Below, in pieces: positions 13,301 to 34,800 of a stretch of DNA of 64,000 nt. The stretch is from Lytechinus pictus (Eukaryota). The translations under genes were made by a program, and so were the position numbers. The notes beneath the pieces are model-generated. The model was not told the origin of the DNA, did no database searches, and worked only from the letters and a program-made list of their open reading frames with translations. How positions within the stretch are numbered: the first letter of the stretch is position 1; each line of letters opens with the position of its first letter. The stretch lies in the NCBI RefSeq assembly GCF_037042905.1, contig NC_087250.1, forward strand, positions 4,900,001 to 4,964,000. The letters run 5' to 3'.

Positions 13301-14925
13301 GGCCACCAAAAAAAATTATTTGAAGATTTTGGTGGCCCAAACGGGCCACCACCAAAAAAAGTTAATGTGGAGCCTTGTTAAAGGTAAATGCTAGTTTTGG
13401 TAACGATATCAAAATGAGTTCGTACAGAATCCAATGAAATGACCACCAAAGTGTCTGTTTGTATAAATAAAACGCATGTGCCAAAGGATTCTGGAAGAAA
13501 TTGTGTAATTGCTGAGAAATCAGCAAATAAGCACAGGATTCGGGTAGAGCGTCGGGCCCGACGCTCAGAGCAATAATTATACACTGTCCCACGTGCGCTT
13601 ATCTGTGTTGGGGGAGTTCAGTCTGAACATTATTCAGCGTAGATTTCAAGATTTCACAAAGTTCAGTTTATGTAACTGTACCAGATCTAGATCCTCGATG
13701 ACATACTGACAATTAAGCCTGGTTTTACAGACTTTCTCATGAAATCAGTGTTTACTGCAACTACTGGAATTTCTCTTTAACTTTGGACAATTTGATGTGT
13801 TAAGGTAATACTACTACAAAATGAGCTGCATTACAGATTCTTTACAAAACTTTAGGGGCCACGCCATACAGTATGCACGCAAAAAGCCATCCATATGAGG
13901 ATGAAAAATGAACAATTATAATGCACTCGTTGTCATGCCTTGCGTAGGTCATGACGTAAAAATTGAGAAAAGGGTATGTCGGACGGATAAAAAGGTTGAT
14001 TATTTTATGGACTTGCCAGGAGGCCTTCTAACAGGTGATTCACTTGGGAAAGCATACATGTAACTTCATCTACAACTTAATACACGTACTATGAATACCA
14101 GTACAAACAAATATTCATCATGAGGGGCTTGCACTATCAAACATGAATAAATTCTAGCAGCATGTATGTTCAGTGTTGTGATAACAAGCGTTGTTTTTGT
14201 TTTTGTTTAAAAAGGGTGCTTTTTATAGAATGATCAATAACTATGAAAACATTAAAAAAATTGATTTAAATTGCTTTTGTTCGTTCTTACCTGCAGCAAA
14301 GTCCCTATCAACGGATCGTTCGTCATACATGGGTTGATTCTCTGTATTCATTGGGTATGGGTCGTCAAAAGCGGGAGGAGCCTCATCGCGATGGGCGTCG
14401 CTTAGCTCTGGGGCGGGTCTCGTGGGCTGGCTGATGTCGTAACTGTTGGTTTCTGGAATGATGAAGTCAGATGGTGGAGGAAATCAAATAAGATTGTTAT
14501 TGTTAGGATAACCATAATCAGATGAGATGATGAGTATTCCCACATAACAGTACCATGGTAACCTTGGCTACCACTGTCACAATGTTCATTGTAATCATCA
14601 TCACCATAATCATCATCATCACCATAATCATCATCATCATCATCACCATCATCGTCATCGTCATCATCATCATCATTACAATCTTCATCAAAATCATTAT
14701 CAACATAATCATCATCAGTATCATCGTCACCATCACCATCGTCATCACAATCATCATCATTATAAACATAATCTTCATCATCATCATCACCATTTCGATC
14801 ATCATCAATATCATCATCTTCATCATCCGTACACCCACCATTAATACAACTACTATCATCAGCATTATAATTATCATCTCTTTCATCTTCATCATTATCA
14901 TCATCATCATCACCACTACCACCAA

Positions 14926-14962
<37 letters not shown>

Positions 14963-17900
14963 TTCATCATCATCATTATCATCATCATCATCATCTTCAT
15001 CATCATCATCATCATCATCATCTTCATCATCATCATTATCATCACCATCATCATCATCTTCATCACCATCATCATCATCTTCATCATCATCATCACCATC
15101 GTCGTCGTCGTCATCATCATCATCATTACAATCTTCATCAAAATCATTATCAACATAATCATCATCAGTATCATCGTCACCATCACCATCGTCATCACAA
15201 TCATCATCATTATAAACATAATCATCATCTACATCATCATCATCACCGTCATCATCATCATCACCATTTCGATCATCATCAATATCATCATCCGTACACC
15301 CACCACCAATACAACTACCATCATAAGCATTATAATCATCATCTCTTTCATCATCATCATCACCACCACCACCACCACCACCACTACCACCACCATCATC
15401 ATCATCTTCATCATCAACATCATCATTATCATCATCATTATCATCATCATCATCATCATCATCACCACTACCACCACCATCATCACCACTACCACCACCA
15501 TCATCATCATCTTCATCATCATCAATATCATCATCATTCTCATTTATCATCATCTTCATCCGATCAGTACTCCCACCACCAATACATCCACCACCATCAT
15601 CATCTCCATCAGCATCATCTTTATTACCACCGCCACCACCACCATCCTCCTCCTCATCAAAGTGACTCACTACTAGTATGCCTCTGGACCGTGTTTGTCC
15701 TGCTCGTCGGTTCGCTCTTGCTCTCGCTGGCCGTCGGCGGCAGGGACCCATCAACTGTCGTTTTCCTGGGGAGCGTCGTGAAGGTGCTGGAGGCGTGGAA
15801 GAACTTCTCTTCCCATCCGTCCTTCTTGTACTGAGGACGCATGTCCTTATAAGCCCACATGGCATGTAGCACCTGTGTCGGTGTTAAAAGGATGCAAGCC
15901 ATCAACGGATTTATCGACTTGGTAGAGTGCAACAAGCCTTATTGTACAACACTTACTTAGCTTGTTGTATGCGAGCAAATGAGAGGCTGAATGTCAAACA
16001 TTCGTACCCCTGCACACATACCGCCCAAAGCGTACCGTCCACAATGTACCATTGCACTGGTCAGGAAAAGGTAACGTCACCATAAAAATATCACTGTCAA
16101 AATTTTATTTATTTTAATAGATTTATGTAGGAAAATGTGATCATTGTTCGACATATTTTTCGCTAACTTCCGAAAGCGTTGTACAACACAAATAACAAAT
16201 ATTCTTATTCATACAATGGTGCGACATTTTGCATTTGGTGAAAGAAAGAGACACTCTATTCAATAGAGCTTCTTTCTTTCACCTTGTGCGAAATCTCGCC
16301 CCGACGCACACATGCCTATTTGATATTTTTACATTGGCTGGTCGTTCAGAATTGTCTCCAGTTTAAAATTGGTGTTTTGTTTAGTTCCCAGTTGTGGATT
16401 GCTGCTAATTGCTATGCTCAGTTCAGCATTGTGTTCAATTGGTGCTGTGTTTAGATTGCAGTGATGGATGGTTGGGTTGCTAAGTGTTATGTTGACTTCC
16501 ATGTTGTGTATCATAAGGATTGTGTACCATTGGTGTTATGTCAAGGTCAATATTGTGAATGGTAGTGAAGTGTTGTGTTCAATTCAGTGCTGTGCTCTAA
16601 CACCAACAACTGATAAGAAGCAATGATAAACAGTCTATGCTTAATTTCGGTTCAGTGCCATAACTGGACTTTCAGTGTTGCATTCGGTTCAATCTCATGC
16701 AGTTTTGTTTAGTGCTCTGTTTTCAGTGTAGTATCTGGTGTACCATCGACACCAGATTCGTAGACACCTACCTGGTAAGCAGCCTTGATGACTGACGCTG
16801 GGTAAGCACCGTTGGTTTTGGTGAGAGAGACCAGACGCTCAATACCCGATGCACCCCGCAAGGATCTGCAGATATATAAATGTTGGATATTATCATTATC
16901 ATGAGAGACATAAGAAATACACATTGAATAATAAAAATAATAATGATCCGCTTCTATATACATGTAGCGCTTAATACAATAAAACAACGTCTCTAAACGC
17001 TTTACAGATATATTATTACCCCGGTCATCGGATCCTGGCATGCCCCCATACAATGTATGCACTTTCTCCACTCCCTGGGGAGCATGCCAACAAGAGTTCA
17101 AAGGCTCAATTACATGTATGAGGCATATTACATGATTAGGCTTTCGCTTCCTACCGGGTACCCATTAAACACTTGGGTGGAGAGTGGCAAAGTGTGGATT
17201 GTTGCCATGTGAAGATTGTTCAAACATGGTACAGCAAAGCTAAGTGACAAAGCTCCGCAACAATCTTTCAGTCTTTTTTTCTTTCACCAAAAATAGGAAC
17301 TGCCCCTATCAATGGGATATAGCTGACAGGTTTCACTCTACTTACTTTGCATTTTCTTGGTTCTTCGTAACCAGTTCCGTCATCGTGTTCAGGACAGCGA
17401 CGACGCCTTCATTAGAAATGTCTTTGGCCGATCGTCTACTGCTGGTGGAGCTTGGGAGACGTTCTACAAGATCCTGCATACCATACTTGCCTAAAAAACA
17501 GAAAGAAATAGAAGAAAGTGAACAAATATGTACGGCCACCAGAGGAAGTGGTTGGGACTATGGTTACCAAAGTGCCACCGGAATGCAACTTTTTTTCCAG
17601 AGGGGCGCAACCTGGTAGGAAAATGGTGGCATTCGCATCACTGAGGGGATCACACTTTCACCAAACCTCCGATCGAAGGCGGGAAAATATTTGGTTTATA
17701 TCCATCATCGGAATTAAACACATCAGGGGCCCGTTTCATAAAGAGTTACAACTGTTGTGACTTTGCCATTATGACAACAATCATGGCAACAGGGCTCAGC
17801 AGCCAATCAAAATCAAGGTAACCACGGTATTTGCCATAATGGGAACAGTTGCAAGTCCTTTATGAAACAGGCCCCTGATAGTAATGTACATCTAATTGAA

Positions 17901-20900
17901 TGAATAACAATCTTCGTGAGAGAATTCATTAATTCATTGATTAGCTTTGTACGTGCCCACATGCGTTTGGTTTAAGCCCCGCACTTAGCCGTAAATAGTT
18001 TTTGAAACATGTACATCTGATGTCATGGCTGAGGGTACTCTACCATTATGTGATGTCCGATGTCAGGATTCTTGGCATTCTTGCCAATTTCGTGACATTG
18101 GTTGGAACTATCTTTGGTCACATGACTGGGTTTAGACCAATCACCTGTTTGGATTATTATGGCAGATATAATAAGATAGAGACCACTCCATACATGTCAA
18201 ATCATCACTGGAACACTAAAATCTGTCGTGTGAAAGCCTATAACTGTTTTGTGAAATTAAGTGAAACTTTAAAATATCATGACTTTCTTATTCAAACATC
18301 CGATTTTGATGAAATTTTCAGCGTTATGCTTGTTGGATTTTTCTCTTTTTATTCAATTCAACTTTTTGTTGGGGTGGACTTGTCCTTTAACCCTAAATCT
18401 CCTGGGGTATTTTGATTCTTGTCATTCCCGGAGGGGGCCATTAAGATCTCAGCCGCGGATTGCGCGATCACAATGAAAATTTGCATGATGGTAGAGAATG
18501 ACGTAATCTACGCAGTTGCATTGGTAAATTTCACTGATATATTTATATTTTATATGAATTAATTATGCTAATTTATTCATGAAATCATACTTTTTGCTCT
18601 GATTCACTAAATAAAGCTCCTAGAATGCTAATTTTTGGTGAAAATATTCTTTATAGCATTCCTAACAAATGTGAATGAAATAAATTCTGGTACCAAGACC
18701 GATTTCTTATGTATTTTATTGTTTTTTTTTATTTCTTATGTACAGTGTATTTCTTTGTTTTTTACTTTTTGTTTTTTCATTGTTTTTTCGATGGAAATCG
18801 TTCCAGACTTAATTCTGATCATAAACAAGACAAAATTAATAAAGTTTAATCAGTAAAAGTAGAAATAATGATACATTTATGAATTTTGGCTAATACACAA
18901 TCTGCATTGGATTTGTACATGAAATCACGTTTATGAGCAATTTGGGGTCTGACATGCACTTACATAATGTTGCGTAATGTCGTAACCGCGTACGCGGGCG
19001 TCACAAATTTGGTCTCAAAATTTGCGCGAGACTTGAAAGTAAAAAGTCGGTGAGCGGCAAGGTCAAAAAATTTTGCGCAGCAGATATATCGTGAAAATTA
19101 TCGAGGGGGGCCATTATGGCCCCCCCTGGGAGAATTAGGGTTAAAGATCCTCCGCTTACCAATGAGATCTTTATTCCTTGGATCCATAGCGAGGTTGCGG
19201 AGGGCCTTGGCAACGGCGATCATCACACGGTCATTCTTCATCCTCAGAAGCTCAACAAGGATAGGTAGACCTTTCTCTTTCCTCATCTCAGCGCGGATAT
19301 ACATTGCCCACTGAAAAAAAAATTTAGGAAGAATTGTAATTGACAAAGTTAGAAGACGTTGAAAGGATTATAATAATAGCGGCATATTTACCCAGGGTAG
19401 CCACTTCAGTTCCGAAAACTGTTCTCCCAGTGGGCCTTGCTATTATTATTACCCGGCTAAGCTAGGCTACCTATACAGGTGCACACAGCTTTTTTGAGGA
19501 ATTACTTCCTGCCAGTACCCATTTACCTCACCTGGGTTGAGTGCAGCATACTGTGGATGAATTCCTTGCTGAAGGAAATTACGCCATGGCTGGGATTTGA
19601 ACCCAAGACCCTCTGTTTCAAAGTCCAGAGACTAATCCACTGGGCCACGACACTCCACTCATTATTGAGAAATGGTTATTAAAAAAGATAGTTCTTATAA
19701 AGATTGAAGAAAAAAAACACAATAATTCTTCATTGTTACAAAATTTCACTAAAATAGGTAGACTTTCCGCTTTCATCATCTCAGCTCAAATATACATTGC
19801 CCACTCAAAAAGGATTAACAAGAAATGCAATTGAAATGAAGAATATAAAAGTAAACAGGACCATTAGGCAATTGTTATCAATACATGGCCATTCTTCATT
19901 CTTAGAGCATTCACTATGATTGGTAGACCTTTCTCTTTATGAATCTAAAAGCCTGGATATACAATGGCCATTGAAGAAAGATTTCAAGAATCATAAACAA
20001 GCTCAAATGAAATCGAGGGAAATCCCCTTACACCACAACACTCAACTGCCATTCTCCAGCATTTACATTCTGGATTGTTCCTACTCAAATTTAAATTGAG
20101 GGAAGTCCCCTTCTGTAATTCAGGGGAATCCCCCCTACCCCACAACACTCTGTGGCTGTTACATTGTGTATTGCTCCAGCGGCTGCCTCCAAAGAGGCCG
20201 GTTTGGAGCACTTCGATAGTACAATGAAATCAAACGTACAGCTCCAATGAAATTGAGGGGAATCCCCTTCATTATTCAGGGGATTTTCCCCTACCCCACA
20301 ACGCGCACCTGCCACTCTCCGGCTGTTACATTCTGTATTGTCCCAGCGGCTGCCTCCAAAGAGGCCGGTTTGGAGCACTCTGATAGTACGATGAGAAACG
20401 GGTTGACGATGCAATGTTCTTTACCTGGGGGGAGTCCCTTACACAACACTCACCTGCCATTCTCCGGCTGTCACATTCTGTATCGTTCCAGCGGCTGCTT
20501 CCAAGGAGGCCGGTCTAGAGCACTCCGATAGTACAATGAGATACGGGTTGATGATACTTGGTTGCCAGAGCTTCTCCATACCTTTGACGTCCTTCTTCAG
20601 GTTAGGGATCGGCTGGGACGGGTTCCAGGTGCCAGTTTTGCTGCAAGGACAGAAACAGGTGTATAATTTGAAATACCAATGCCATGCTAAATCGTGATAG
20701 GTAAGCAGCATTGCACATCCTCTTGGCAGAATTTGACCAATGCGGTGATGCCTTTCATACCGCACACAACGAGGAGTTAAAGTGTGGCTCTTAGGTCGCA
20801 ATTAAATCTTTGTGAAATCCCCCCCCCCCCCCCCCCGGAAATGAGTTTGAAATTTTAAATCATATCTGACCAAGGTCCAGAAAGGTCATCTGAATGATTG

Positions 20901-22978
20901 GAGATAAACTTACCCTGCCGTTCCATTCGAAGCTAGCTGGGCGTCTTTCTTCTTACTCCCACCAAAACAGATCAACGAACCGCTCTGTGGACCTGGTCAA
21001 AAACAGATAACAACGAATCAGAGGCCTGCATATAACCAATTTACTATAACGGTTAAAAGCTACTGAAATCCTTCTATCCGATTGGCTGATGGGAAATTTG
21101 TCATAGAAACTGTTCATTTGTTATTATAACAAGTCTCTATGAAACAGGGAAGTGGAGAGCAAAATTCTCACCGAGTTTATCAGTGCACGAACTTACGGAA
21201 TCACAACGCTTTCGTTGCAGAATGACGTCATGGATCTGAGACCGATAAAAGCACAAAGCTCATTTTCGAAGTCCGATAATTGGAGCTATTCTGTAGTTAA
21301 ATACTCGGCTGGCAAGCGCTGCGGTGAATATGCGTAAATCTTTTTTTACACTGCAGCTGTGTTTTGAAGTTTATAAGCTTTGGATTGATGTATGATTTGT
21401 CAATTTCAATTTTGGGTCCGGTCAGGGTCTTTAAAAAGATAGGACAGCTTTGAGACATTTCAGACTCCAAAGTCGGTATAGGTTAGTCCAGAGCTACGAA
21501 ACTTGATCGTGAAAAAATTTTATTCTTTTTTATCCAATTTTCAAGCTTAAAATCCGATTTTTCATGAAAAACTTTGAAAAACATACCATAAACCATCATT
21601 CTTACAAGCTTCTAGGAGGAAAAGTGTCACTGTCGCGTTAAAAATCCTACTAATTCGGTGGATTCAAAATACGGTGCGCCACCTATCGGATGCAGCATAC
21701 AGGCCGAAATTCGCAATGCCCCATGGGAAAAAGTCGACATCTTTTATGCGCGCAAGTGCATGTACGCCATTATGCTGGGTTGACCGATGCAGCTCGACCA
21801 GCTTGCATATTATATGCTGTTCACCAGGGTCCAGGGGGTGGGAGAGAAATTAGCTGCATATTTCCTTGCAAAATTAAAAACGTTTTCAGAGAATTCTTCT
21901 TCCGCCTTTGGCATAAGGTTTCATTTTCAAGCATCATAGTCACTGCCTGATGTCTACCCCAAAGTTAGAAATTGGCCTGTCCACTGCAACTGATAGATGG
22001 CGCATCATATCGTGAATCCACCAAATTGGCGGCTCTGCTAGTCCAGGGGGGCGTTTCATGAAAGGACTTGTCGGACGTTTTATCCGACAAGTCCCATTTT
22101 ATCCGACAGTTACCATAGTAACATCAACATCAGACAAAGATGTAACTTGTCGGATGAAAATGTTGATGAAACACTCCCCTGGGTCACTCTAATTGGTAGT
22201 AATGGTTGGTTTACTTACTCTTCTTCTGTTGTGATTTGGGCATGGTGTCGGGGAAATTGGACGATGTGTTGCTGCGTAGGGGGATGGCGTCCGGGTGGTT
22301 GGCCTCGTTCGCTATACGAAACGTCAGGTTCCTCAGGATACAGAGGGTGTTCTCCACAACCTGACAGAAAGACAGATGGGAAATACTTGTGACATAAAAG
22401 AATCTTAAAGAGCATACCATGGGCCGTAGTTAATACACAAAGCATGGAAATAGATGGTACAGGTAACTTTGCTGAAATCAAATCTTTCAGGACCACCAAA
22501 ACCTGTTTAACGTAAATAAGACACGCTTTGTATACATACAGGTATTCTGGGGAGCGTTTCATGAAAGGACTTGTTTTATCCTACAAGTCTTGTTTTATCC
22601 GACAGTTACCATAGTAACAGTGCCTCTCAGCCAATCAGAATCAAGGAAAGTCATCAGATCTGACAACTTGTCACACGAAAATGTTGATGAAACACTCCCC
22701 AGGTCTGAAATAATGCTTGGGGTAAGGCGATAATTTAACTATACTGATGATGAGGATGTGATGATGGTGATGATGATGTGATAATGATGAGGATGATGGT
22801 GATGAGGATGATGTGATGATGATGAAGGTGATGATGATGATAATGATGATGGTGGTAATGATGATGGTGATGACGGTGGTGATGATGATGATGGTGATGA
22901 TGGTGATGATGATGATGATGATGGTGGTGGTGATGATGATGATGATGGTGATGGTAATGATGATGGTAATGATGATGG

Positions 22979-23027
<49 letters not shown>

Positions 23028-25848
23028 GATGATGATGGTGATGATGGTGATGATGATGATGGTGATGATGGTGATGATGAGGATGATGATGATGGTGTTG
23101 GTGGTAATGATGATGATGATAATAATGATGATGATGACAATGATGATGACAACGAAGATGAGGACGACAACATTGACAACAATAATGCCAAAAAAAATCC
23201 TTTTAATACTAACTTGATTATCCATGTCATTGTTCCTCATTGACGAGCTGAGTACGTGGAGTAGACTGTCTACCAGACCCTCACACTCTCTCATCCGATG
23301 CCTGGCTTCAATCCCACCTGAACTCACATTCCTGTAGTACAAAAAGAAATTAATAATCGTATTGAATATGCAATAGAGTGACTGGTATAGTAGTCTTATC
23401 CCTGTACATGTAGTAGACTGTCTACCAGACCCTCAAACTCTCTCATCGGATGCCTGGCTTCAATCCCACCTGAACTCACATTCCTGTAGTACAGAAAGAA
23501 TTAATAATCGTATTGAATATGCAATAGAGTGACTAGTAAAGTAGTCTTATCCCTGTACATGTAGTAGACTGTCTACCAGACCCTCAAACTCTCTCATCGG
23601 ATGCCTGGCCTCAATCCCACCTGAACTCACATTCCTGTAGTACAGAAAGAAATTAATAATCGTATTGAATATGCAATAGAGTGACTAGTAAAGTAGTCTT
23701 ATCCCTGTACATGTAGTAGACTGTCTACCAGACCCTCAAACTCTCATCAGATGCCTGGCTTCAATCCCACCTGAGGCCCGTTGCAGAAAGAGTTGCAATC
23801 AAACGCAACTCTAAAAATCACGCGCAACTTGATTTTCAACCAATCAACAGCGCGCATTTTGGACTTGCGATCGATTTTTTGACTTGCGTTTAAACGCAAC
23901 TCTATCTGCAACGAGCCCCTGAACTCACATTCCTGTAGTACAGAAAGAATTAATAATCGTATTGAATATGCAATAGAGTGACTGGTAAAGTAGTCTAATC
24001 CATGAACATATAGTAGACTGTCTACCAGGCCCTCGTACTCTCTCATCGGATGCCTGGCCTCAATCCCACCTGAACTCACATTCCTGTAGTACAGAAAGAA
24101 TTAAAAATCCCAATGAATAAGCAATAGAATGACTGGTTGAGGAGTCTAACATTTGCTCCAATAAGCAAACTGTACCAGAACATCACAGGCTTTCATCTAA
24201 TGCCTGGCGTCATGCCTATGAACTTATACTTTGCTCATTAAGTAATTTTCTTTTGCGTGCTATCAATTCTCCTTTCATACACTGTATGCACACACTCCGC
24301 TCCCTGGTGGGGAATATTCTATCCGTATGTCATACCTCAAACAGCCCGTGGCATTGATGAAAGTTTTAGTCCACGGCTCGTCGGCGGGCTTGAAAGGACT
24401 GTTGCCGCTAGGCTTCCATCCAGACTCTGGGATTAATACATTGTTCACCAGGACACTCAGGGCATCCTCCAAGATAGTCTTCTTCAAAGGCTGTTGGGAT
24501 TAATAAAATACAAGACATTAAATTTATTATTATTTCACTACTAGTGTATCCCTAAAAGGACCGAAATCTGACGAATATCACATGGGCTCCTGTACAAGAA
24601 TATGAGACCGGATTCAACAGTCTAGTGCCCATGCACGAATGCATTAAATATACAACGCGTACAAAAAGTAATACGATGCACAGCATAGAGCAAAATAATA
24701 ATAATAATAATAATATAGGGTATTTATATTGCGCACATATCCACCTTGTTAGGTGCTCAAGGCGCTCCTATATTACCCGGCTAAGCTAGGCGTTCATAGC
24801 GCACACAGCATTTTAAGGAATTACTTCCTACCGGTACCCATTTACCTCACCTGGGTTGAGTGCAGCACATTGTGGATCAGTTTCTTGCCGAAGGAAATTA
24901 CGCCATGGCTGGGATTCGAACCCACGACCCTCTGTTTCAAAGTCCGAAGACTAATCCACTGGGCCACAACGCTCCAAAATGATACTCAATGACGTCATAA
25001 TGAACTACATGTACATAGAAGTTGCGTGCCAATGACCAAATTTGATCTTATAAAGTAATGATGCCATATAAAGTGACATGACTTGTTCAATCAAACTTAT
25101 CCCTATTTTTTTTTTTGGGGGGGGGGAGGGGGGATGGGATAGATGATAATTGTATTGGATGGATTTTTTTCATGAAAAAGCAGAAATATTCTACTCGTTA
25201 GGGCCAATATTCCACTCCTTTGCCGTCTGAGACATCCAATATTTAAATTGTTGAGAAATACAAAGAGTAACGGTGATCTCACCTCAGAAGAGCTTAGATT
25301 CCATAACGTTCCTGCAGCAAGATCTTTGGTCTAATCGAAAGAGATAAAATGAAATTGAATTTAGAAAAGATAAACATTTCATCATCATCATCACCACAAT
25401 CTCAATTATCAACATTATCATCATGATCACCATCTTCATCATCATCATCATCATCATCATCACCATCACCATCATCATCATCATCATCACCATCACTACC
25501 ACCACCATCATCACCACCATCATAAAGATCAACATCAATGTCAACATTAATATAATCATTGTCATCACCATCATCATCATCATCATCATCATCATCACTA
25601 CCACCACCATCATCACCATCACCATCATCACCATCATCACCATCACCACCATCATCATCACCATCATCATCATTATGATTATCGTTATCATTACCATCAC
25701 CATCATCACCATCATCATCATCATCACTACCACCACCATCATCACCATCATCACCATCACCATCATCACCATCATCACCATCACCACCATCATCATCATC
25801 ATCATCACCATCGTCATCATCATCATCATCACCATCATCATTATCATC

Positions 25849-25898
<50 letters not shown>

Positions 25899-28800
25899 TA
25901 CCATCATCACCACCATCACCACTATCATCACCATCATCACCACCATCACCACTATCATCACCATCATCACCATCACCATCATCACCACCATCATCATCAC
26001 CACCATCACCATCATCACCACCATCACCACTATCATCACCATCATCACCATCATCATCACCATCACCATCATCATCACCACCATCATCACCACCATCACC
26101 ATCACCACCATCATCACCACCATCACCATCATCACCACCATCATCACCATCACCATCATCACCACCATCACCACCATCATCACCACCACCACCATCATCA
26201 CCACCATCACCATCATCACCATCATCAACATCATCATCACCTCCACCACCATCATCACCACCATCATCATCATCACCACCACCACCACCACCACCACCAT
26301 CATCATCATCACCATCATCCTCATCACCATCATCACCATCATCATCATCACCATCATCAACATCATCACCATCATCATCATCATCATCACCACCACCACC
26401 ATCATCACCACCATCATCACCATCACCATCATCACCACCATCACCACTATCATCACCATCATCACCATCACCATCATCACCACCATCATCATCACCACCA
26501 TCACCATCATCACCACCATCACCACTATCATCACCATCATCACCATCATCATCACCATCACCATCATCATCACCACCATCATCACCACCATCACCATCAC
26601 CACCATCATCACCACCATCACCATCATCACCACCATCATCACCATCACCATCATCACCACCATCACCACCATCATCACCACCACCACCATCATCACCACC
26701 ATCACCATCATCACCATCATCACCATCATCACCATCATCACCATCATCACCACCATCACCACCATCATCACCACCATCACCATCATCACCACCATCACCA
26801 TCATCACCACCACCACCATCATCACCACCATCACCATCATCATCACCACCACCACCATCATCGACCCCAGCATCCCTTCTCCTCACCTCTGTATCTGAAG
26901 ACGTTCTTAGCAGCCTGGCAAGGGCCGGTATCCCACCGTTAGCTTTGATCTTGACTTTGTTCTCTTCGTGTTTTTTCCCGTAGCTAAGGTTCCTCAACGA
27001 GCCACACGCTGTGCGGTGGATCTCGGGTACGGGGTTGCCAAGCAACCCGACCAAAGGTTGGATACCACCCATTTCCCTGTAGAGAGAAGAAGGACGAATA
27101 TCATTTCACTACACAATCATCATGTTTTAAGTACATGTAATTAGTGTTGAAATTAAACGTACAAAATACCATCGGCAAGATAACATATCTCGCCATGTTA
27201 CCATTATAAGGCTATTTCCTATCTGACAGTTATTTGCTCTTCGCCCAATGAGATGCAAGGATTTACAGTAGCTTATAACGACTGTCATCACGGCAAGTTA
27301 CGCCGTTATTATCTACAACCTACATGTATCTTGCCATGACCATATGTAGATTTTTATAAGTCGACTTGGAAAAATATATTAAATAAAAAAGTTAGTGAAC
27401 CCCACCACAAAATGCACTCCTACAAAATGTACATGCTGAGTGTTGTATGTAGACTATCACGCTTCAATGTCCGGCGAGCCCAGAGAAACAAACTCTATTG
27501 AATGGAATATTTTATCACCTGACTTCACAATTAAATATCTAAAACATGGCGGAACCTTAACACTTTAAATGCGTTCATTTTCTGGTGGGGTTCACTAACT
27601 TTTGAGCACCACTGAATAATTAATTCTGATTAAATACAGGTATGCATGTAATTTGCTGAATAATCGTCCCAACTAGTTTTCATGAAGAAAACTTGACTTT
27701 GAGCTGTCTATTCCTTGTCGGTACGGGTTAAGGCTGATAAAAAACAATCATAAAATAAATCTTTCCATTTGGACAATATTCACTAAAACCGAGGAGGGAT
27801 TATCGATCAAAGCCAGATTTCCAAACTTTTTTTGAGGAGTTTACAATGGTTGGGGAGCCCAGAGAAACAATCTTTATTGAATGTAATATTCTATCCCCTG
27901 ACTTCACAATTAAAAATCTATAACATGGCGGAACTTTAACACCTTAAATATGTTCATTTTCTGGTGGGGTTCACTAAACTTGTTAACACCACTGTACATA
28001 TAATACTGGATGGATACCTTGTCTTTCTTTTGATGTCATCGTTCTGGTAGGAGAGATGCTGTATGTAGCCTGCTGCGTGTGCCACAATGGACTGGTTAGG
28101 ATGACCCAGGTAATCAATCACTTCCTGTAGGTCAGGGGCCCTCCATTTGCCATCACCTACAAAGGTCAAAGAAAAAGAAAAAAAGGGTCACCAAATTATT
28201 GGGGTTTTTTCTCTCTCTTTTTAAGTTATTCCTGGGCTTGAAGTAAAGGGGGGGGACTGCCCTGTTGACATACCTCACCCATTGTCATTGGAGATTTGGT
28301 TTTCCACTTTTTTTTATTGGAAAATTTGAAAAATTGGAAATTGGAAAAATTTGAAAATTTGTGCAGTAGAATAGAGATGTGTCTTAAAATGGGGAAATAC
28401 ACTTGGTCGTACAGAGGAGCATTAATTCAAACACATAACAGTTGATCAGTTGTCTTGGAACACACATACAGTGCCAATAAAGTGAGCTGGTTAAACTTCA
28501 AATGAAAGCAGACAATTTTCAGAAAAAATATATATAAAGTGATGAATTCGGTACCAACCAGTGTTCTAGCTAGACCTAGTGACCAGTGGCTGCTATTTCA
28601 CGGCATTACCAAGTTTTTCGTTTCAGGACGAGTTAGTGGTCTTAAAGCCAAAAGTGAAGGAACATCAAGTAATAACAATCTGACATTGGCAAATCTTTGA
28701 AAATAAACAAATATGAACGCAAGAGCAATTCCTCTTTTCAAGGAGTTAGTTTTGAAACACTTTTCATTTGAAACTAGTAGTGGACTGGAAGCAGTGTTTA

Positions 28801-31800
28801 TGTGAGTAGTGGTCAGAAATCTTCTGTGCTGGTTGGGCCCGACCACTGCCGTCCACTGTAGCTATAACACTGGTACCAACTTATATTTGAGATTGCCTTT
28901 GAGGTACATGTATGTGTATTTGGTATTCCTTATAAGGACAGCAAATCTAACATTGCAATGTTGTTAAGTTTTACTATGAAAATAAAAATGAAAATGTTTT
29001 TTTTTTAATCAAAGTTATAATATCACCAAACAGTATACAGTGTACATGTGTATACATATGAGGTAAAACATTATAAATGTGCACTATTTCATGCAGTGAT
29101 ATTCAAGTTGAAATAAATCTTTACAAGACATAACATGACAAGATCAAGGAACGACCACAGGCTTGCAACCAACAAATGTAAATTGATTAATGACAAGATA
29201 GAGCATATAAAGACAAATCACTGTTACTTGAAATACATATACATTAGGAACATAAAGAATGATAAAGCATGAAAATAAAATTGCATTAGTTTTTTAAATA
29301 TTGAAAAGCTGAGACACATGCATGATCACAAAAAAAAAACACAAAATGGCAACTCAAGAATTCACTGTGTCCATAATTTGGTACATTTAGTCTCATATTT
29401 TAAAAGTTTGGGATCAAGGACTCTTCCAATATTAATCGACATGTAAATAGCAATTTGCCCACTCCGCCCCCCCCAAAAAAAATTGATTGAGCATAATTCA
29501 TTTCCATGCATATTGGTACACGAGGGAATACTTTATAGCTTCTTCATCTCTTCTTGCCATGTCATCCCCTATTCAAAGACTTGTCAGATGTTTCATTGGA
29601 TGATTCATCCAACAGTTACCATATGAATTGTGCTTCTCAGCAGCCAATAAAAATGAAGGAAAGTGTGGCAGATCTGATGAATTTTACAGACGACAGATAT
29701 TGATGAGACGCTCCCCGGGTGTGTCCAGGTCTTTTAGGAATTGAGTGAGACTGTGACAGACGAACAGTCTATCTTGAGGATCATTTTTCAACAACAAAAA
29801 AATTGAATGGATTTTGATCTCTTGGGATATTTAGTGAAAACAGTAACAACAACACCACCACCATGAAACTATACATAAAAATTGAAATACATAAACAAGA
29901 TTTAACATAGCATGCAAGTGTAGACATCGTGAGTACTGTACATTGTATACTAGTATCTGTCTCACACTACGCGATCCAATTGTGATCCAAATTGTGATCC
30001 AATTATGACCCAATTATTGAACAAATCATATCATACTTTGCATTAAATATAAGTTTAAAAAGCGGAATTATTTTTATTCTTGTATTTGAATTTGAAAGAA
30101 TGCTCAGAATTCTAAATTCAGACTTCCACTTGAAGCCTAGTGGTTGGTGCAAAGTCAAAATCGGCTTCAAACTGCAGTGGAGGGGAATTTTGCTTTGACG
30201 TCACTGCAATTTGTAAACAAATGTGCATTTATTCCTCCAGATAAGCTTGCTAGAAATTACAGAATACAGCCTGAAATTTCAATAATAGTCTTCATTTTAT
30301 ACCATATCTTTGGAACTTTGATGATTGAAATTTTATAGGTTAGAATTTTGATAATATGCCATCAATTTTTTTCCCCAAATTGGATGGAAAATGGATCACT
30401 AATGCTATGTACAGTCTCATTTCCCCTACGGCAAGTCGAAAACAGCGGGTTTCAATCATTTGTATTCAAACCACCTATATGTAGCTGATAGGGACAGTGA
30501 TTTTCCGTTTTACCGGTAAATAAAACGGAAATTCCGTTTGGTTCTTATACATTTCATGTACAAATTCATGGAATTCACCTTTGCAAAACGGAATTCAGGT
30601 TTTTGCTGTGTACATTTTCAGTGACAAAACAGAATTTCTCTTTTTAGATCAAGTTGAAACGGAATTACAGATTTTCAGAAATGGAAAAGACAATTTTTTT
30701 AAACGAAAAATCACTGGCTGTTTTTGACTCTCGGTAACGCTGCCGTAGAGCAAATATGACTGAGGTACATGTGTAAGTGTGTGACTGGCTTAAGATATGA
30801 ACAGGGGACATTTTGTAGAGAAGTTTCTCACCAAAACTACTCAAAGATGACCGAGAAGACTTTCTTGATAAGAGGTCTTGATAGGTTGGGAGGTGGTGGT
30901 GATAGTGGCCAGAAAGGTATTTGGAGGGCCGGAAAATGAGTTGCGCTGATGTTAGGTTGCGTGTAAGAAGGAAATTGCATGTTAGGAAGAGATATAAAGA
31001 GAGCAAGTGTGAAAGGGGAATGGAAGTTACAGTGTTAGATTGGGTTAGAAATAGAAGAACAGTTCACATATGAAAGTTAATCCTGAACCATGTTCACATT
31101 TACAGAAACATCTTAAAGGAGAATGAAACCCTTGAAACCAGCTGAATCCATATCAAAGAGAAAAATCAAAGAAACATATTGTTGAAAGTTTGAGGAAGAT
31201 TGAATGAATAATAAGAAAGTTATGAGCATTTGAATATTGAAATCACTAATGCCATGTAGATCCTCCAATTGGCAATGCGACCAAGATCTGTGATGTCACA
31301 CACGTACAACTCCCTCATTACTTTAGTACTTATTTCACTTATATTCTCACTTTTATAGAGTCTATCACAAGGTGAGGTGTTCTCTTTATGAGAGGACAAG
31401 TACAGAGGTTTCACAACATTATATCATTGATGAATCGTTTGTCATATGATTAGAATGAGCAAAAAGAGATGTTTTGGGGTATATTTTCAGTGTCCAAAAG
31501 GGGAGAGTTGTTCATCTGTGACATCATAGATCTTGGTCGCATTGCCAATAGGAGGATCTCTATAGCATTAGTGATCTCGACATTCAAATGCTCATAACTC
31601 TTCTACTGCTAGTCCTATTTTACTCAAAATTTTTTTGATCTTATTCTTTGATTTTTCTGCTTTCACAAAAGCTAACTTGCTCCGAGAGTTTCATTCTCCT
31701 TTAATGAATGTCAATAATTAGTATGTAAATGAATGCAAGAGATACACATGTAAGATTAAAGAGACATAAATATTCAATAAAAAACAACAATAATTACATG

Positions 31801-34800
31801 TGCATGTTGGAAAGCCTATTAAGAAATTCTATTTGCTCATATGAACATAAATGTGATATAAAAATGTTCGCCATATGATCACGAACTAATAAAAAAATAT
31901 TAAAATCTGACCTATTTATATATGCCATAATTCCTTGCAAGCTCACTTGCCTTTCACAATTCAAATAAAGTTTTATTTGTAAAGAAATTTTATTCGTTCA
32001 TGAACATAAATGAAATGATCACCATATGATCACAAACTTACCATAAAAAAATTGAAATCTAAACATATTTATATATGCCAAAATATTTCCTTGCAAGCTC
32101 ACTTCAAAAGTTATAACTTTCCAAAATTTTAAATGATAGTACAGCCTGGAGATGGAGAATAACTTTTTCAAACATCTAATATACAGTTACATATTCATTC
32201 ACACAGGATATGTATCTTTGATGACATGAACAACAAATGTTATGAGCATAATTTTCTTTTAAAGACACCATCATGGTTATGACTGCAACAAATGTTTTTC
32301 ATGTGGATGGTAAGGCTAGAACACATTTACTGAGTATCTTAAAGAGGATACCTTGGCTGTCAGGCTCAAATTCACTCTGTTGGTTTTCCACAAATTCAGC
32401 TACAAGAACTTGAATATATGGTAAAATAAAGTGATAAAGATCTCTTCATGTATGCTATTAGTCTAAATACACAAATTAACTACCGGTCTGCATTGTTAGT
32501 GATTTTTTTTTTTAATCTGACTTCAACATACCTCCGCATCATCAGATCTTTTAATTTATTCATTTTTTGTTGAGGTCACAGTGATCATTTTGGGGTACGC
32601 ATTTATAAAAGATGCAGAAAGAAGCTTCAAACAAAATTCAGCTTTGAGAATTTGAGGCTAGTTTTGAGATTTTGGAAAGCTATCTTTATTGTGCTGCTAC
32701 CATAAAGTATACATACAAATTTACTATGCATTGTTAGTGATTTTATAAACTGACTACAATACAGCTCGGCCATCGCCAGATCTATTATTTACTTATTCTT
32801 TTTATATTCACAGTGAGCATTTTGGAGGCTTAGATTTGCTGATAGTATATTAAAAGATTCAGAAAGAAGCTTTAATGAATGCATGTAGCCAGGAAGGTAC
32901 TGGCGATTTAAAACCTGAGGACTCCCCTCAGAAAAAAAAAATATATATGTGCCTTAAAAAGCAAACAAAGACCTGTTATATTTTCTTACACATGAACGTG
33001 TTATCCTATTTTGTATTTTCTAGTAAATTTTGAAAATAGGCCGGGGCGTCTTTCATCTCAAGCCCTAGCAACTGACCGGCCGATGAAAACAATGCACTAG
33101 CGACCCGTACAGCAGTGCGGCGTTTTGGCATGACTAGAATGCACGATACACAAACATCGCATTCATACTTTGTGCTGAACGTCATAATAATCGGGTCTAC
33201 CCATTTCGTTTTCTAGTTCACAAATCTTTTTGGAATTTTCAGTGCTGTTTCGGACATTATTCTAATACTTTCTTCTTATCGCACTAAGGTCAGTGCTGTC
33301 GTCGTTAAACTGGATGTGACGTCACTCTGCCCCGGCCTATAAGGTTCAAATACATAGCAATGATAAAAGCAAATAGATGAGTTGCCCCAGTCTTCCCTAT
33401 TCTTTAATATATTTTCTAGTAAATTTGGATGATAATAGTAAATACGTGTAGATGAGTTGGTTCCTCCAACCCATCCACCGACTTACTAACCCTTTCAATA
33501 CCAACGGATTTCAATGGTACATAGATTTCCAATAGACCCTAGGTCATGTTTTTTGTCGCATAGGGAAAAATGTGTTAAAAACAAAAATAAGAAATACATA
33601 CCCACAATGCATTTCTAACAACTGACCTTTTTCTGGGGGTATGAACGGATCATGTGAGGGCGTCCTATCGAGTGTACCGGCCGGCGACCTGTCGTTAAGG
33701 TCAGGGTCGTGACCTCTGTTGTCGGTGTCATAATCATCGTAAGGCTGCCGTGACGACACGTACGGGTCCTCTTCTATTTCAACAAAAGTTAAAAAGGTGA
33801 TGATAAAGAAGAAAAGGAATAGAAAACGGTTCATTTCACGAGGGAGGGGAGGGGGGGGGGGGTGATTACAGTACTAGGAAAACATTGAATTTCGTGGCTG
33901 AAGTCATCAAAATTTCCCCGCAATCAGGAACAAAAGTACTACTGTACATGTATATCAGTGAAAATTGACATATTCTTGATGTCGATCTACATGTAGGTAC
34001 AAAACATGAAGACAAAATCAACCCTTTAGATGGATAATGCATTAGGTATTAAAAGTAAATGTTAAATTGACTACACATAGCAAAGGCTATGATATGGATT
34101 ATACAGATTAGTAATTACAATGCTTGAAAATTATTTTTTTGAGAGAGAGAGAGAAGGTACATGAACAGTTTGAATGGGAGGTGGGACCGCACACGTGAAA
34201 CACGGCAAAATATGGTGCATACAAAACAATATACAAAACAACACAAGAAAGTGCATCATTTGATATTTAAAGGTCAGATCCACCCTAGGAAAATGCCGAC
34301 TTGAATAAATAGAGAAAAATCAAACTAGCATAGTGCTGAAAATTTCATCAAAATCAGATGTAAAATAAGAAAGTTATGACATTTTAAAGTTTCGCTTATT
34401 TTTCACAAAACAGTGAGTCGATGATGTCCATCACTCACTATTTCTTTTGTTTTTTATTGTTTGAATTATACAATATTTCATTTTTGTTTAAAGATTTGAC
34501 AATAAGGACCAACTTGACAGAAACATATAGTATTAAACAATGCTAATTCCACATGTTCAGGGAGGAATTAATCGGTGTATCACTTGACAACAAGTAGAAA
34601 ATTATAATATTTCATATTTCATGTAATAAAAAAAATACAAAACAAATATTGAGTGGATGACATCAAAGTCTCTTCATTTGCATACCAGCCAGGATGTGCA
34701 TATAACTGTTTGGTGAAATTAAGCAAAAATTTAAAATGTCATAACTTTCTCATTTTACATCCGATTTTGATGAAATTTTCAGTGTTATGCTTGTTGGATG

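Follow-up and report, generated by a model that had tools for sequence, protein, structure and literature searches.

Tandem duplication of an exon, or of a fragment of one, within an intron is known to give rise to pseudo-exons or to mutually exclusive exon pairs. The element described here, called copy 2, is a duplicated half-exon in a gene related to human p120, and it lies on the minus strand at 20424-20309 of a window of 64,000 nucleotides (nt) from the sea urchin Lytechinus pictus (NCBI RefSeq assembly GCF_037042905.1, contig NC_087250.1, positions 4,900,001 to 4,964,000 of the forward strand; all coordinates below are positions in this window). Copy 2 is like other tandem exon duplicates in being a head-to-tail genomic copy with a donor beside its parent exon, with both frame and donor kept. 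It is unlike them in that it holds the 3' 34 codons only, is one of four graded units and occurs in none of the sampled transcripts; since only these codons were copied, it has no inherited acceptor. The second system to compare is mammalian p120, in which, according to PMC4996431, the loop inserted between armadillo (ARM) repeats carries a RhoA-binding and nuclear localization signal (NLS) motif at amino acids 622-628, interrupted by an alternative exon that is also named C; PMC3013132 deals with RhoA as well. The likeness lies in the family, in the same insert loop between ARM repeats and in splicing that alters a polybasic motif. In contrast, the mammalian exon is a 6-residue cassette insertion with experimental support, whereas the change proposed for the urchin would be a 54-residue replacement or a half-exon swap, has no RNA support and bears no sequence relation to the mammalian exon.

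The urchin intron holds a tandem array of partial copies of exon boundaries, the gene is spliced canonically around the array, copy 2 is absent from the sampled RNA, its acceptor is weak and the locus is unique in the genome. It is rather likely that copy 2 is an unspliced intronic pseudo-exon within this array. Repeated local duplication, by slippage or by unequal crossing-over, of a segment of ~145-167 nt spanning the boundary between exon C and its intron would have produced the array. The spliceosome would then use the donor of the first unit, since no other unit is joined to the 5' part of exon C, and the later units would leave with the intron, so that copy 2 would stay an unspliced pseudo-exon. 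Read in this way the locus is ordinary, as introns are known to gather debris from boundary segments duplicated in tandem, and the puzzle is the codon-aware conservation of one unit beside sister units that have decayed freely.

The host is a long single gene on the minus strand of the window, running from ~57.8 kb to 4.2 kb. In tblastn the RefSeq protein XP_063956818.1 ('splicing regulator ARVCF-like', Lytechinus pictus) had 100% identity to most exons, including A, B and the exon bases of C and D, and the 'catenin delta-2 / plakophilin-4-like' proteins of L. variegatus and S. purpuratus were near-identical to the exon translations of the gene. The Pfam domain Arm (PF00514) was found on XP_063956818.1 with an E value of 3.5e-29 (100.3 bits vs a cutoff of 20.6), and the closest solved structure was human p120 (catenin delta-1, 3l6x; E 1.7e-113), followed by plakophilin 1 as the next structural relative (E 3.5e-56) and by beta-catenin (~1e-13). 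Judged from these homologies, the host gene is a p120/delta-catenin-family member of the armadillo proteins. Its alignment to 3l6x is interrupted over residues 657-724, a stretch with GGSKKK and NLKKD that forms the insert loop between ARM repeats. The exons around the array are the following (a slash marks the splice boundary):

22360-22219, minus strand: exon A, 142 nt, starting in phase 0 and ending with 1 carried base, with splice sites tctgtcag/GTT and AGA/GTAAGT; a piece of record 1 of the transcript contig set X1.
20992-20914, minus strand: exon B, 79 nt, the polybasic part of the insert loop, 100% in tblastn.
20640-20454, minus strand: exon C, 187 nt, frame 2, with the last 102 nt as the template of the copies and the donor CAG/GTGAGT at 11.9 bits.
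19310-19160, minus strand: exon D, 151 nt, joined in RNA straight to exon C by the junction 20454 to 19310.

Copy 2 begins beyond a short spacer downstream of exon C, and its segment 20410-20309 (minus strand) duplicates the final 34 codons of that exon. Over these 102 nt exactly 12 differences and no indels separate the two (11 transitions and one transversion). Nine of the differences are synonymous, all of them third-position transitions, and three are replacements (ATC>GTC, I>V; TAT>TTT, Y>F; AGA>AAA, R>K). The replaced residues I, Y and R are present in the proteins of all three urchin species, and V, F and K thus arose on the lineage of the copy. This agrees with what a sequence-only reading of the window had described, namely a copy of the 3' 34 codons with nine synonymous and three conservative differences; the donor CAG/GTGCGC (20309/20308) and the upstream ccccag (20430-20425) on which that reading relied are both present, and the third copy that it placed at ~20148-20227 is indeed decayed, having lost 11 nt including the donor and gained radical replacements. 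Copy 4, two copies of the 5' end of exon D and homology that continues past the donor were added to that earlier description. The array consists of these parts:

20453-20425, minus strand: spacer, 29 nt, a truncated copy of the intron start that ends in ccccag.
20424-20309, minus strand: copy 2, 116 nt with an open frame, of which 14 nt are junction sequence and 102 nt are homologous to the exon C 3' end.
20308-20228, minus strand: intron-like flank of copy 2, the donor followed by a G-rich GGGGAnnnCCCC motif region.
20227-20148, minus strand: copy 3, decayed, with an 11-nt deletion that takes out the donor and with changes of its own (E>K, T>A, Q>H, G>T); 78% in tblastn.
20080-20046, minus strand: copy 4, the last 35 nt of exon C with the donor GT mutated to TT; repeat family D3.
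~19970-19867, minus strand: first decayed copy of the exon D 5' end, repeat families D5 and D7; 62% in tblastn.
~19803-19720, minus strand: second decayed copy of the exon D 5' end, repeat families D5 and D8; 61% in tblastn, its frame broken by a stop and its acceptor now gag.

In a repeat search, family D2 comprised three copies of 114 nt with 88% and 73% identity, spaced by 145 and 167 nt, which is far beyond chance. Together, families D2 and D3 form head-to-tail units that include intron sequence, with spacings of 145, 167 and 263 nt. The homology does not stop at the donor but extends into the intron, which makes the repeated unit a genomic one, an exon 3' end with the intron start, and not a retro-copy. 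The spacer and the flank of copy 2 differ by 8 mismatches in 29 positions and one 3-nt indel, giving a neutral yardstick of ~28%, and the flanks of copy 2 and copy 3 differ by ~9 mismatches in ~62 positions with four indel events. Along the intron the order is exon C, the 29-nt spacer, copy 2, copy 3, copy 4, the two exon-D 5' copies, an element resembling a short interspersed nuclear element (SINE) and exon D; apart from the first C unit and the last D unit, no copy is connected to the remainder of its exon. This order is the outcome expected from repeated tandem duplication of boundary segments. Copy 4 and the first exon-D copy also resemble an old short-intron version of the C/D junction.

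The same duplication process is seen elsewhere in the gene, which speaks for copy 2 being a pseudo-exon. At 23252-24134 (minus strand) lies an array with a 151-nt period and 5.9 copies, the unit of which joins the strong acceptor ctttctgtactacag to ~80 nt from the start of exon 23331-23214 and an intron stretch of ~70 nt. It is comparable to the array after exon C in that it belongs to the same gene, combines a splice site, ~80 nt of exon and an intron flank and has a similar period. It differs from it in lying upstream of its exon, in bringing strong acceptors instead of donors and in carrying radical replacements (its copies are open-framed and have R>P and C>F/Y) rather than the clean pattern of copy 2. 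In total, three exon-boundary arrays occur within 5 kb of this gene. Further, decay is evident in copies 3 and 4 and in the two exon-D copies, as expected of pseudo-exons, with copy 2 having fewer replacements than the neutral prediction.

A paralogue was considered as the source of copy 2 and rejected, as a search of the 812-Mb, 368-contig assembly with a DNA query and with the copy peptide returned only the local copies, and the locus occurs once. It had also been suggested that the duplicate could derive from a divergent allele. Sea urchins are highly heterozygous, and an allele or an assembly artefact placed in tandem could be imagined on this ground, but such an origin is extremely improbable and the suggestion was rejected. 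By the NG86 method, exon C and copy 2 have a synonymous divergence (dS) of 0.48, several-fold above the ~10% intron divergence between the window and the related organism B (nine substitutions and one insertion listed in 22361-22450), in addition to which there are four copies with graded decay and unit-specific indels, the window contains no N and the locus is single in the assembly. DNA of organism B probably also covers copy 2, its depth being 49.8 in the bin of the copy, 110.1 in the next bin and 0 over copy 3. Coverage of ~20308-20507 (from copy 2 across the spacer into the end of exon C) follows from arithmetic at ~65-74 per contig and not from a listed alignment. These depths suggest that the duplication is real DNA and older than the split of the two organisms.

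The use of copy 2 was evaluated over 19000-22450 with the transcript contig set X1 and the raw RNA runs X22 and X23 (organism A) and with a DNA contig set (organism B), and exon junctions were checked by rebuilding the protein across GT..AG pairs. Across the junctions 22219 to 20992 and 20914 to 20640 the protein was rebuilt with 0 mismatches. Record 1 of X1 is a contig of 2021 nt that carries A-B-C-D, each exon with at most one other letter. Within it, bases 351-506 map to 19155-19310 and are followed immediately by bases 507-693, exon C (20454-20640) with 0 other letters, and it follows that exon C is spliced directly to exon D. After 77 unlisted bases (the 79 nt of exon B less 2 taken by the next piece) the contig continues on 22217-22364. 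Most of copy 2 falls in the bin 20276-20391, where the depth was 0 in X1, X22 and X23, compared to 45.6, 10.4 and 7.0 in the exon C bin. The depths of the bin 20392-20507 (21.2, 3.35 and 0.47) correspond to the exon depth multiplied by 54/116, for 54 exon bases. The exon bases account fully for this bin, so the 5' end of copy 2 and the spacer are uncovered too. Either of the junctions that splicing of copy 2 between exons A and D would create (22219 to 20424 and 20309 to 19310) would add depth on the copy, where the depth is 0.

Annotated proteins gave the same picture. Among the 21 examined, 19 span the region (14 of L. variegatus, 2 of L. pictus and 4 of S. purpuratus, minus 1 fragment; the four annotated clusters have 20 members), and all 19 read A-B-C-D, with IVNPF, SECSK and KEHC, the peptides that copy 2 would bring in, in none of them. 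The copy peptide was also used as a 40-amino-acid (aa) reference against a collection of 5.8 billion clusters. Among proteins longer than 70 aa there were five matches from 27 candidates, the best with 91% identity, all with the exon C version and none at 100%; among proteins of 22-70 aa there was no match, and a scan of metagenome contigs with the exon C peptide gave 600 pattern matches, of which 0 were confirmed. In the literature on sea-urchin delta-catenin and p120, nothing on isoforms of this gene was found among the matches listed. The loop-less isoform that the sequence-only reading had proposed is thus not supported, given the canonical A-B-C-D contig, the zero depth on the copy and its absence from all 19 annotated isoforms.

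The splice signals were scored with a position weight matrix built from the 16 verified introns of the gene, a crude model in which the real sites were scored leave-one-out. The donor of copy 2 has 8.4 bits, within the range of the real donors (4.7-11.2), and ranks fourth among the 160 GT sites of the interval from exon A to exon D. The acceptor of the copy, ccccag, has -3.5 bits, lower than any of the 16 real acceptors (-1.2 to 11.2), and ranks 86th among the 176 AG sites of the same interval, with a pyrimidine fraction of 0.56 vs 0.61-0.89 in the real ones. The donor was inherited through the duplication and the acceptor is a poor accident of the duplication junction. The frame opens right after the TGA at 20452-20450 without an ATG, and no ATG-initiated open reading frame passes through copy 2. 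No structured RNA was indicated either, with 0 Rfam matches over 19000-25200 and 0 from ARAGORN over 19300-25100.

By reading frame alone, copy 2 could be spliced in two ways. That it could act as a 116-nt phase 1-to-0 exon in frame from exon A, as had been proposed, holds, in that the 1 carried base and 116 nt give 117 and A to copy 2 to D stays in frame. The product would have KEHC in place of 54 residues, encoded by exon B and the first 85 nt of exon C and including CFGGSKKK. The proposed deletion of the CFGGSKKK loop stands to the extent that the whole insert loop, the 657-724 gap against 3l6x, is removed, but 11 further residues that align to the ordered p120 structure from residue 725 are lost with it, and this route is therefore not a clean loop deletion. 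Equating the loop with the NLS/Rho region of p120 is apt as a resemblance, with the same insert loop and a basic motif, and functional equivalence would be argued by analogy. The second route would begin at a site within exon C:

20584-20576, minus strand: candidate internal donor in exon C, AAAG/GTATGG, exon end at 20582, phase 1, 7.6 bits and within the range of real donors; a hypothetical site.

Joining 20582 to 20424 is in frame and would keep the loop, exchange MEKLWQPS for KEHC and bring in the V, F and K variants, and this route has no RNA support in X1, X22 or X23. Splicing from exon B to copy 2 was rejected, as GG/G TAA gives an immediate stop.

It is possible, though we consider it unlikely, that copy 2 is a real coding half-exon, rare or tissue-specific, that is used through A to 20424...20309 to D or through 20582 to 20424. 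About the same low probability applies to its being a young, lineage-specific half-exon, born by partial tandem duplication and used in an unsampled tissue or stage. Such a function would agree with the two in-frame routes, with the kept donor and the internal donor of acceptable strength, with a nominal deficit of replacements (p 0.01-0.05) in which all three replacements are conservative, with the contrast to copy 3 and with 102 nt free of indels between flanks that are not. The organism B contig that depth arithmetic places over ~20308-20507 at >=90% likeness can be counted on this side, as can the alternative splicing of mammalian p120 in the same loop (PMC4996431). Set against this are the RNA depth of 0, the 0 of 19 isoforms, the absence of the peptide from every protein of more than 70 aa in the cluster collection, an acceptor no better than the median AG, the ordered residues that the route from exon A would cost, the immediate stop from exon B and the choice of this copy for its conserved look among ~9 partial copies. 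If copy 2 were used, A to copy 2 to D would skip the polybasic loop and 20582 to 20424 would exchange the start of ARM repeat 6, and Lytechinus would have a delta-catenin isoform with an origin separate from the vertebrate exon-C system and an effect on the same loop.

The substitution pattern is not easily squared with a neutral pseudo-exon. The sequence-only reading saw in it a signature of purifying selection, and by NG86 the comparison of exon C with copy 2 indeed gives, with the dS above, a non-synonymous divergence (dN) of 0.04, for a ratio of 0.083 that differs from 1 at p 1e-4. A ratio of 1 is not the proper null here, since only synonymous changes can come from the real exon. At least three of the nine synonymous differences fall on the line of the real exon, namely ACG and GTG, where copies 2, 3 and 4 share ACA and GTA, and GAA at 20499. 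At the last of these (T>C, synonymous) 7 of 7 X22 reads and organism B have the state of copy 2, and the window is derived at a polymorphic site. Positions 20499, 19218, 22250 and 22256 are fixed differences between the window and the individuals of the RNA runs, which is ordinary polymorphism. Copy 3, which is certainly dead, differs from exon C non-synonymously at 7 of 13 differences and fits the null of a constrained exon and a neutral copy.

Several observations count against the neutral pseudo-exon even under this null. For copy 2 the constrained-exon, neutral-copy null gives a binomial p = 0.015, and in simulations the probability of three or fewer replaced codons given 12 differences was 0.012-0.046 for kappa 1-22, with an expected mean of 6.1-6.9. 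It fell to 0.0003-0.0013 when all replacements had to be conservative with no stop, a criterion chosen post hoc. After the split of copies 2 and 3, the changes of copy 2 are synonymous in 3 of 3 cases and those of copy 3 number 5-6, all replacements, in addition to its loss of the donor by deletion; for this contrast of branches Fisher p = 0.012-0.03. Codon positions 1 and 2 differ at 3 of 68 sites, third positions at 9 of 34 and the adjacent spacer at 8 of 29 plus an indel, so the spacer diverges like the third positions and unlike the first and second ones, and the 102 nt of copy 2 have no indel between flanks that have them. On the side of the RNA the sensitivity was low, with ~6% of each raw run read, exon depths of ~7-10 and 1-7 in the two runs and the tissue unknown, and an isoform below ~10-15%, or a tissue-specific one, would therefore escape. 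The junction table covered 15 of 120 joints, mostly repeat-driven ones of the DNA run X5.

These selection tests rest on 12 sites, they overlap, and the copy was singled out for its conserved look among the ~9 partial copies in the gene. What remains of the earlier selection signature is a nominal deficit of replacements under fairer nulls (p ~0.01-0.05), and by sequence comparison copy 2 appears as a nominal outlier. Methodologically, constraint is overstated when dN/dS is computed pairwise from an exon and its copy, and the p value here moves from 1e-4 to ~0.015-0.05 once the constraint on the exon is modelled. For copy 2 as a pseudo-exon, the coding-like look would come partly from the real exon, contributing only synonymous changes to the comparison, and the remaining deficit may be chance in a small sample and is not fully explained. 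The clean pattern is probably part model effect and part chance. If the pattern were real, copy 2 would be a new alternative exon caught soon after its birth by partial duplication, located in the p120-family loop where mammals splice alternatively to control RhoA binding and nuclear import.

A constraint-like pattern could be reconciled with absent RNA and a poor acceptor if copy 2 were a relic, once coding, for example as half of a mutually exclusive exon pair, constrained during most of its history and now dead. Mutually exclusive pairs are usually of a length that is not a multiple of 3, and the 187 nt of exon C fit this. Such a history is nevertheless quite improbable, as the 3 of 3 synonymous pattern on the copy 2 branch postdates the split from copy 3. 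The 5' truncation is older than this split, because copy 3 has the same truncated boundary, and all units appear to have been partial copies since their origin, with an intron-start flank on each.

That gene conversion caused the excess of synonymous differences was rejected: a tract transferred from the exon into the copy removes every class of difference alike, a tract in the opposite direction would leave too many replacements, and the site pattern is interleaved. A less direct role of conversion can be conceived, in which copy 2, unexpressed, acts as a donor to exon C 145 nt away and haplotypes with damaging copies are weakly disfavoured in a very large population. In other systems, nearby pseudogenes are well established as donors of disease-causing conversion, and such indirect selection would give codon-aware conservation without expression, consistent with both the RNA and the substitution results. 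We regard it as very improbable, as no conversion tract is visible and the site pattern is interleaved (sites where copies 2 and 3 agree alternate with sites where copy 3 alone differs). The product of conversion rate, selection coefficient and population size that it needs is marginal, and copy 3, equally close, decayed freely.

Other features of the gene were noted in passing. The SINE-like element of the intron between exons C and D (19370-19700, minus strand) has a second copy at 24700-25010 in the same orientation in another intron, with 84% mean column identity, and ARAGORN found no tRNA in them. Its depth is in the thousands in the RNA sets X1, X22 and X23 and in the millions (mean word depth) in the DNA run X5, indicating a very high-copy repeat that is also transcribed. 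Further very high-copy repeats lie at 22016-22247 and 19000-19115, with depths that reach 53,000 in X1 and 1.8 million in X5, and are the source of most spurious joints. Long intronic simple repeats of the (TGA)n/(GAT/GGT)n type at 22745-23149, ~25400-26880 and ~14400-15550 make spurious open frames of up to 567 aa, with runs of D/G or M/V, and a strong GC skew. In L. variegatus two accession blocks exist for this protein (XP_041467057-65 and XP_041467112-119) on the same 47.8-Mb contig, suggesting two gene models and thereby a gene duplication or a duplicated assembly stretch. The segments 32350-32424 and ~30840-31063 (minus strand) match segments that vary between annotated L. variegatus isoforms, one of them AEFVE.QQSE.EPDSQG, and they are probably real alternative exons of the gene.

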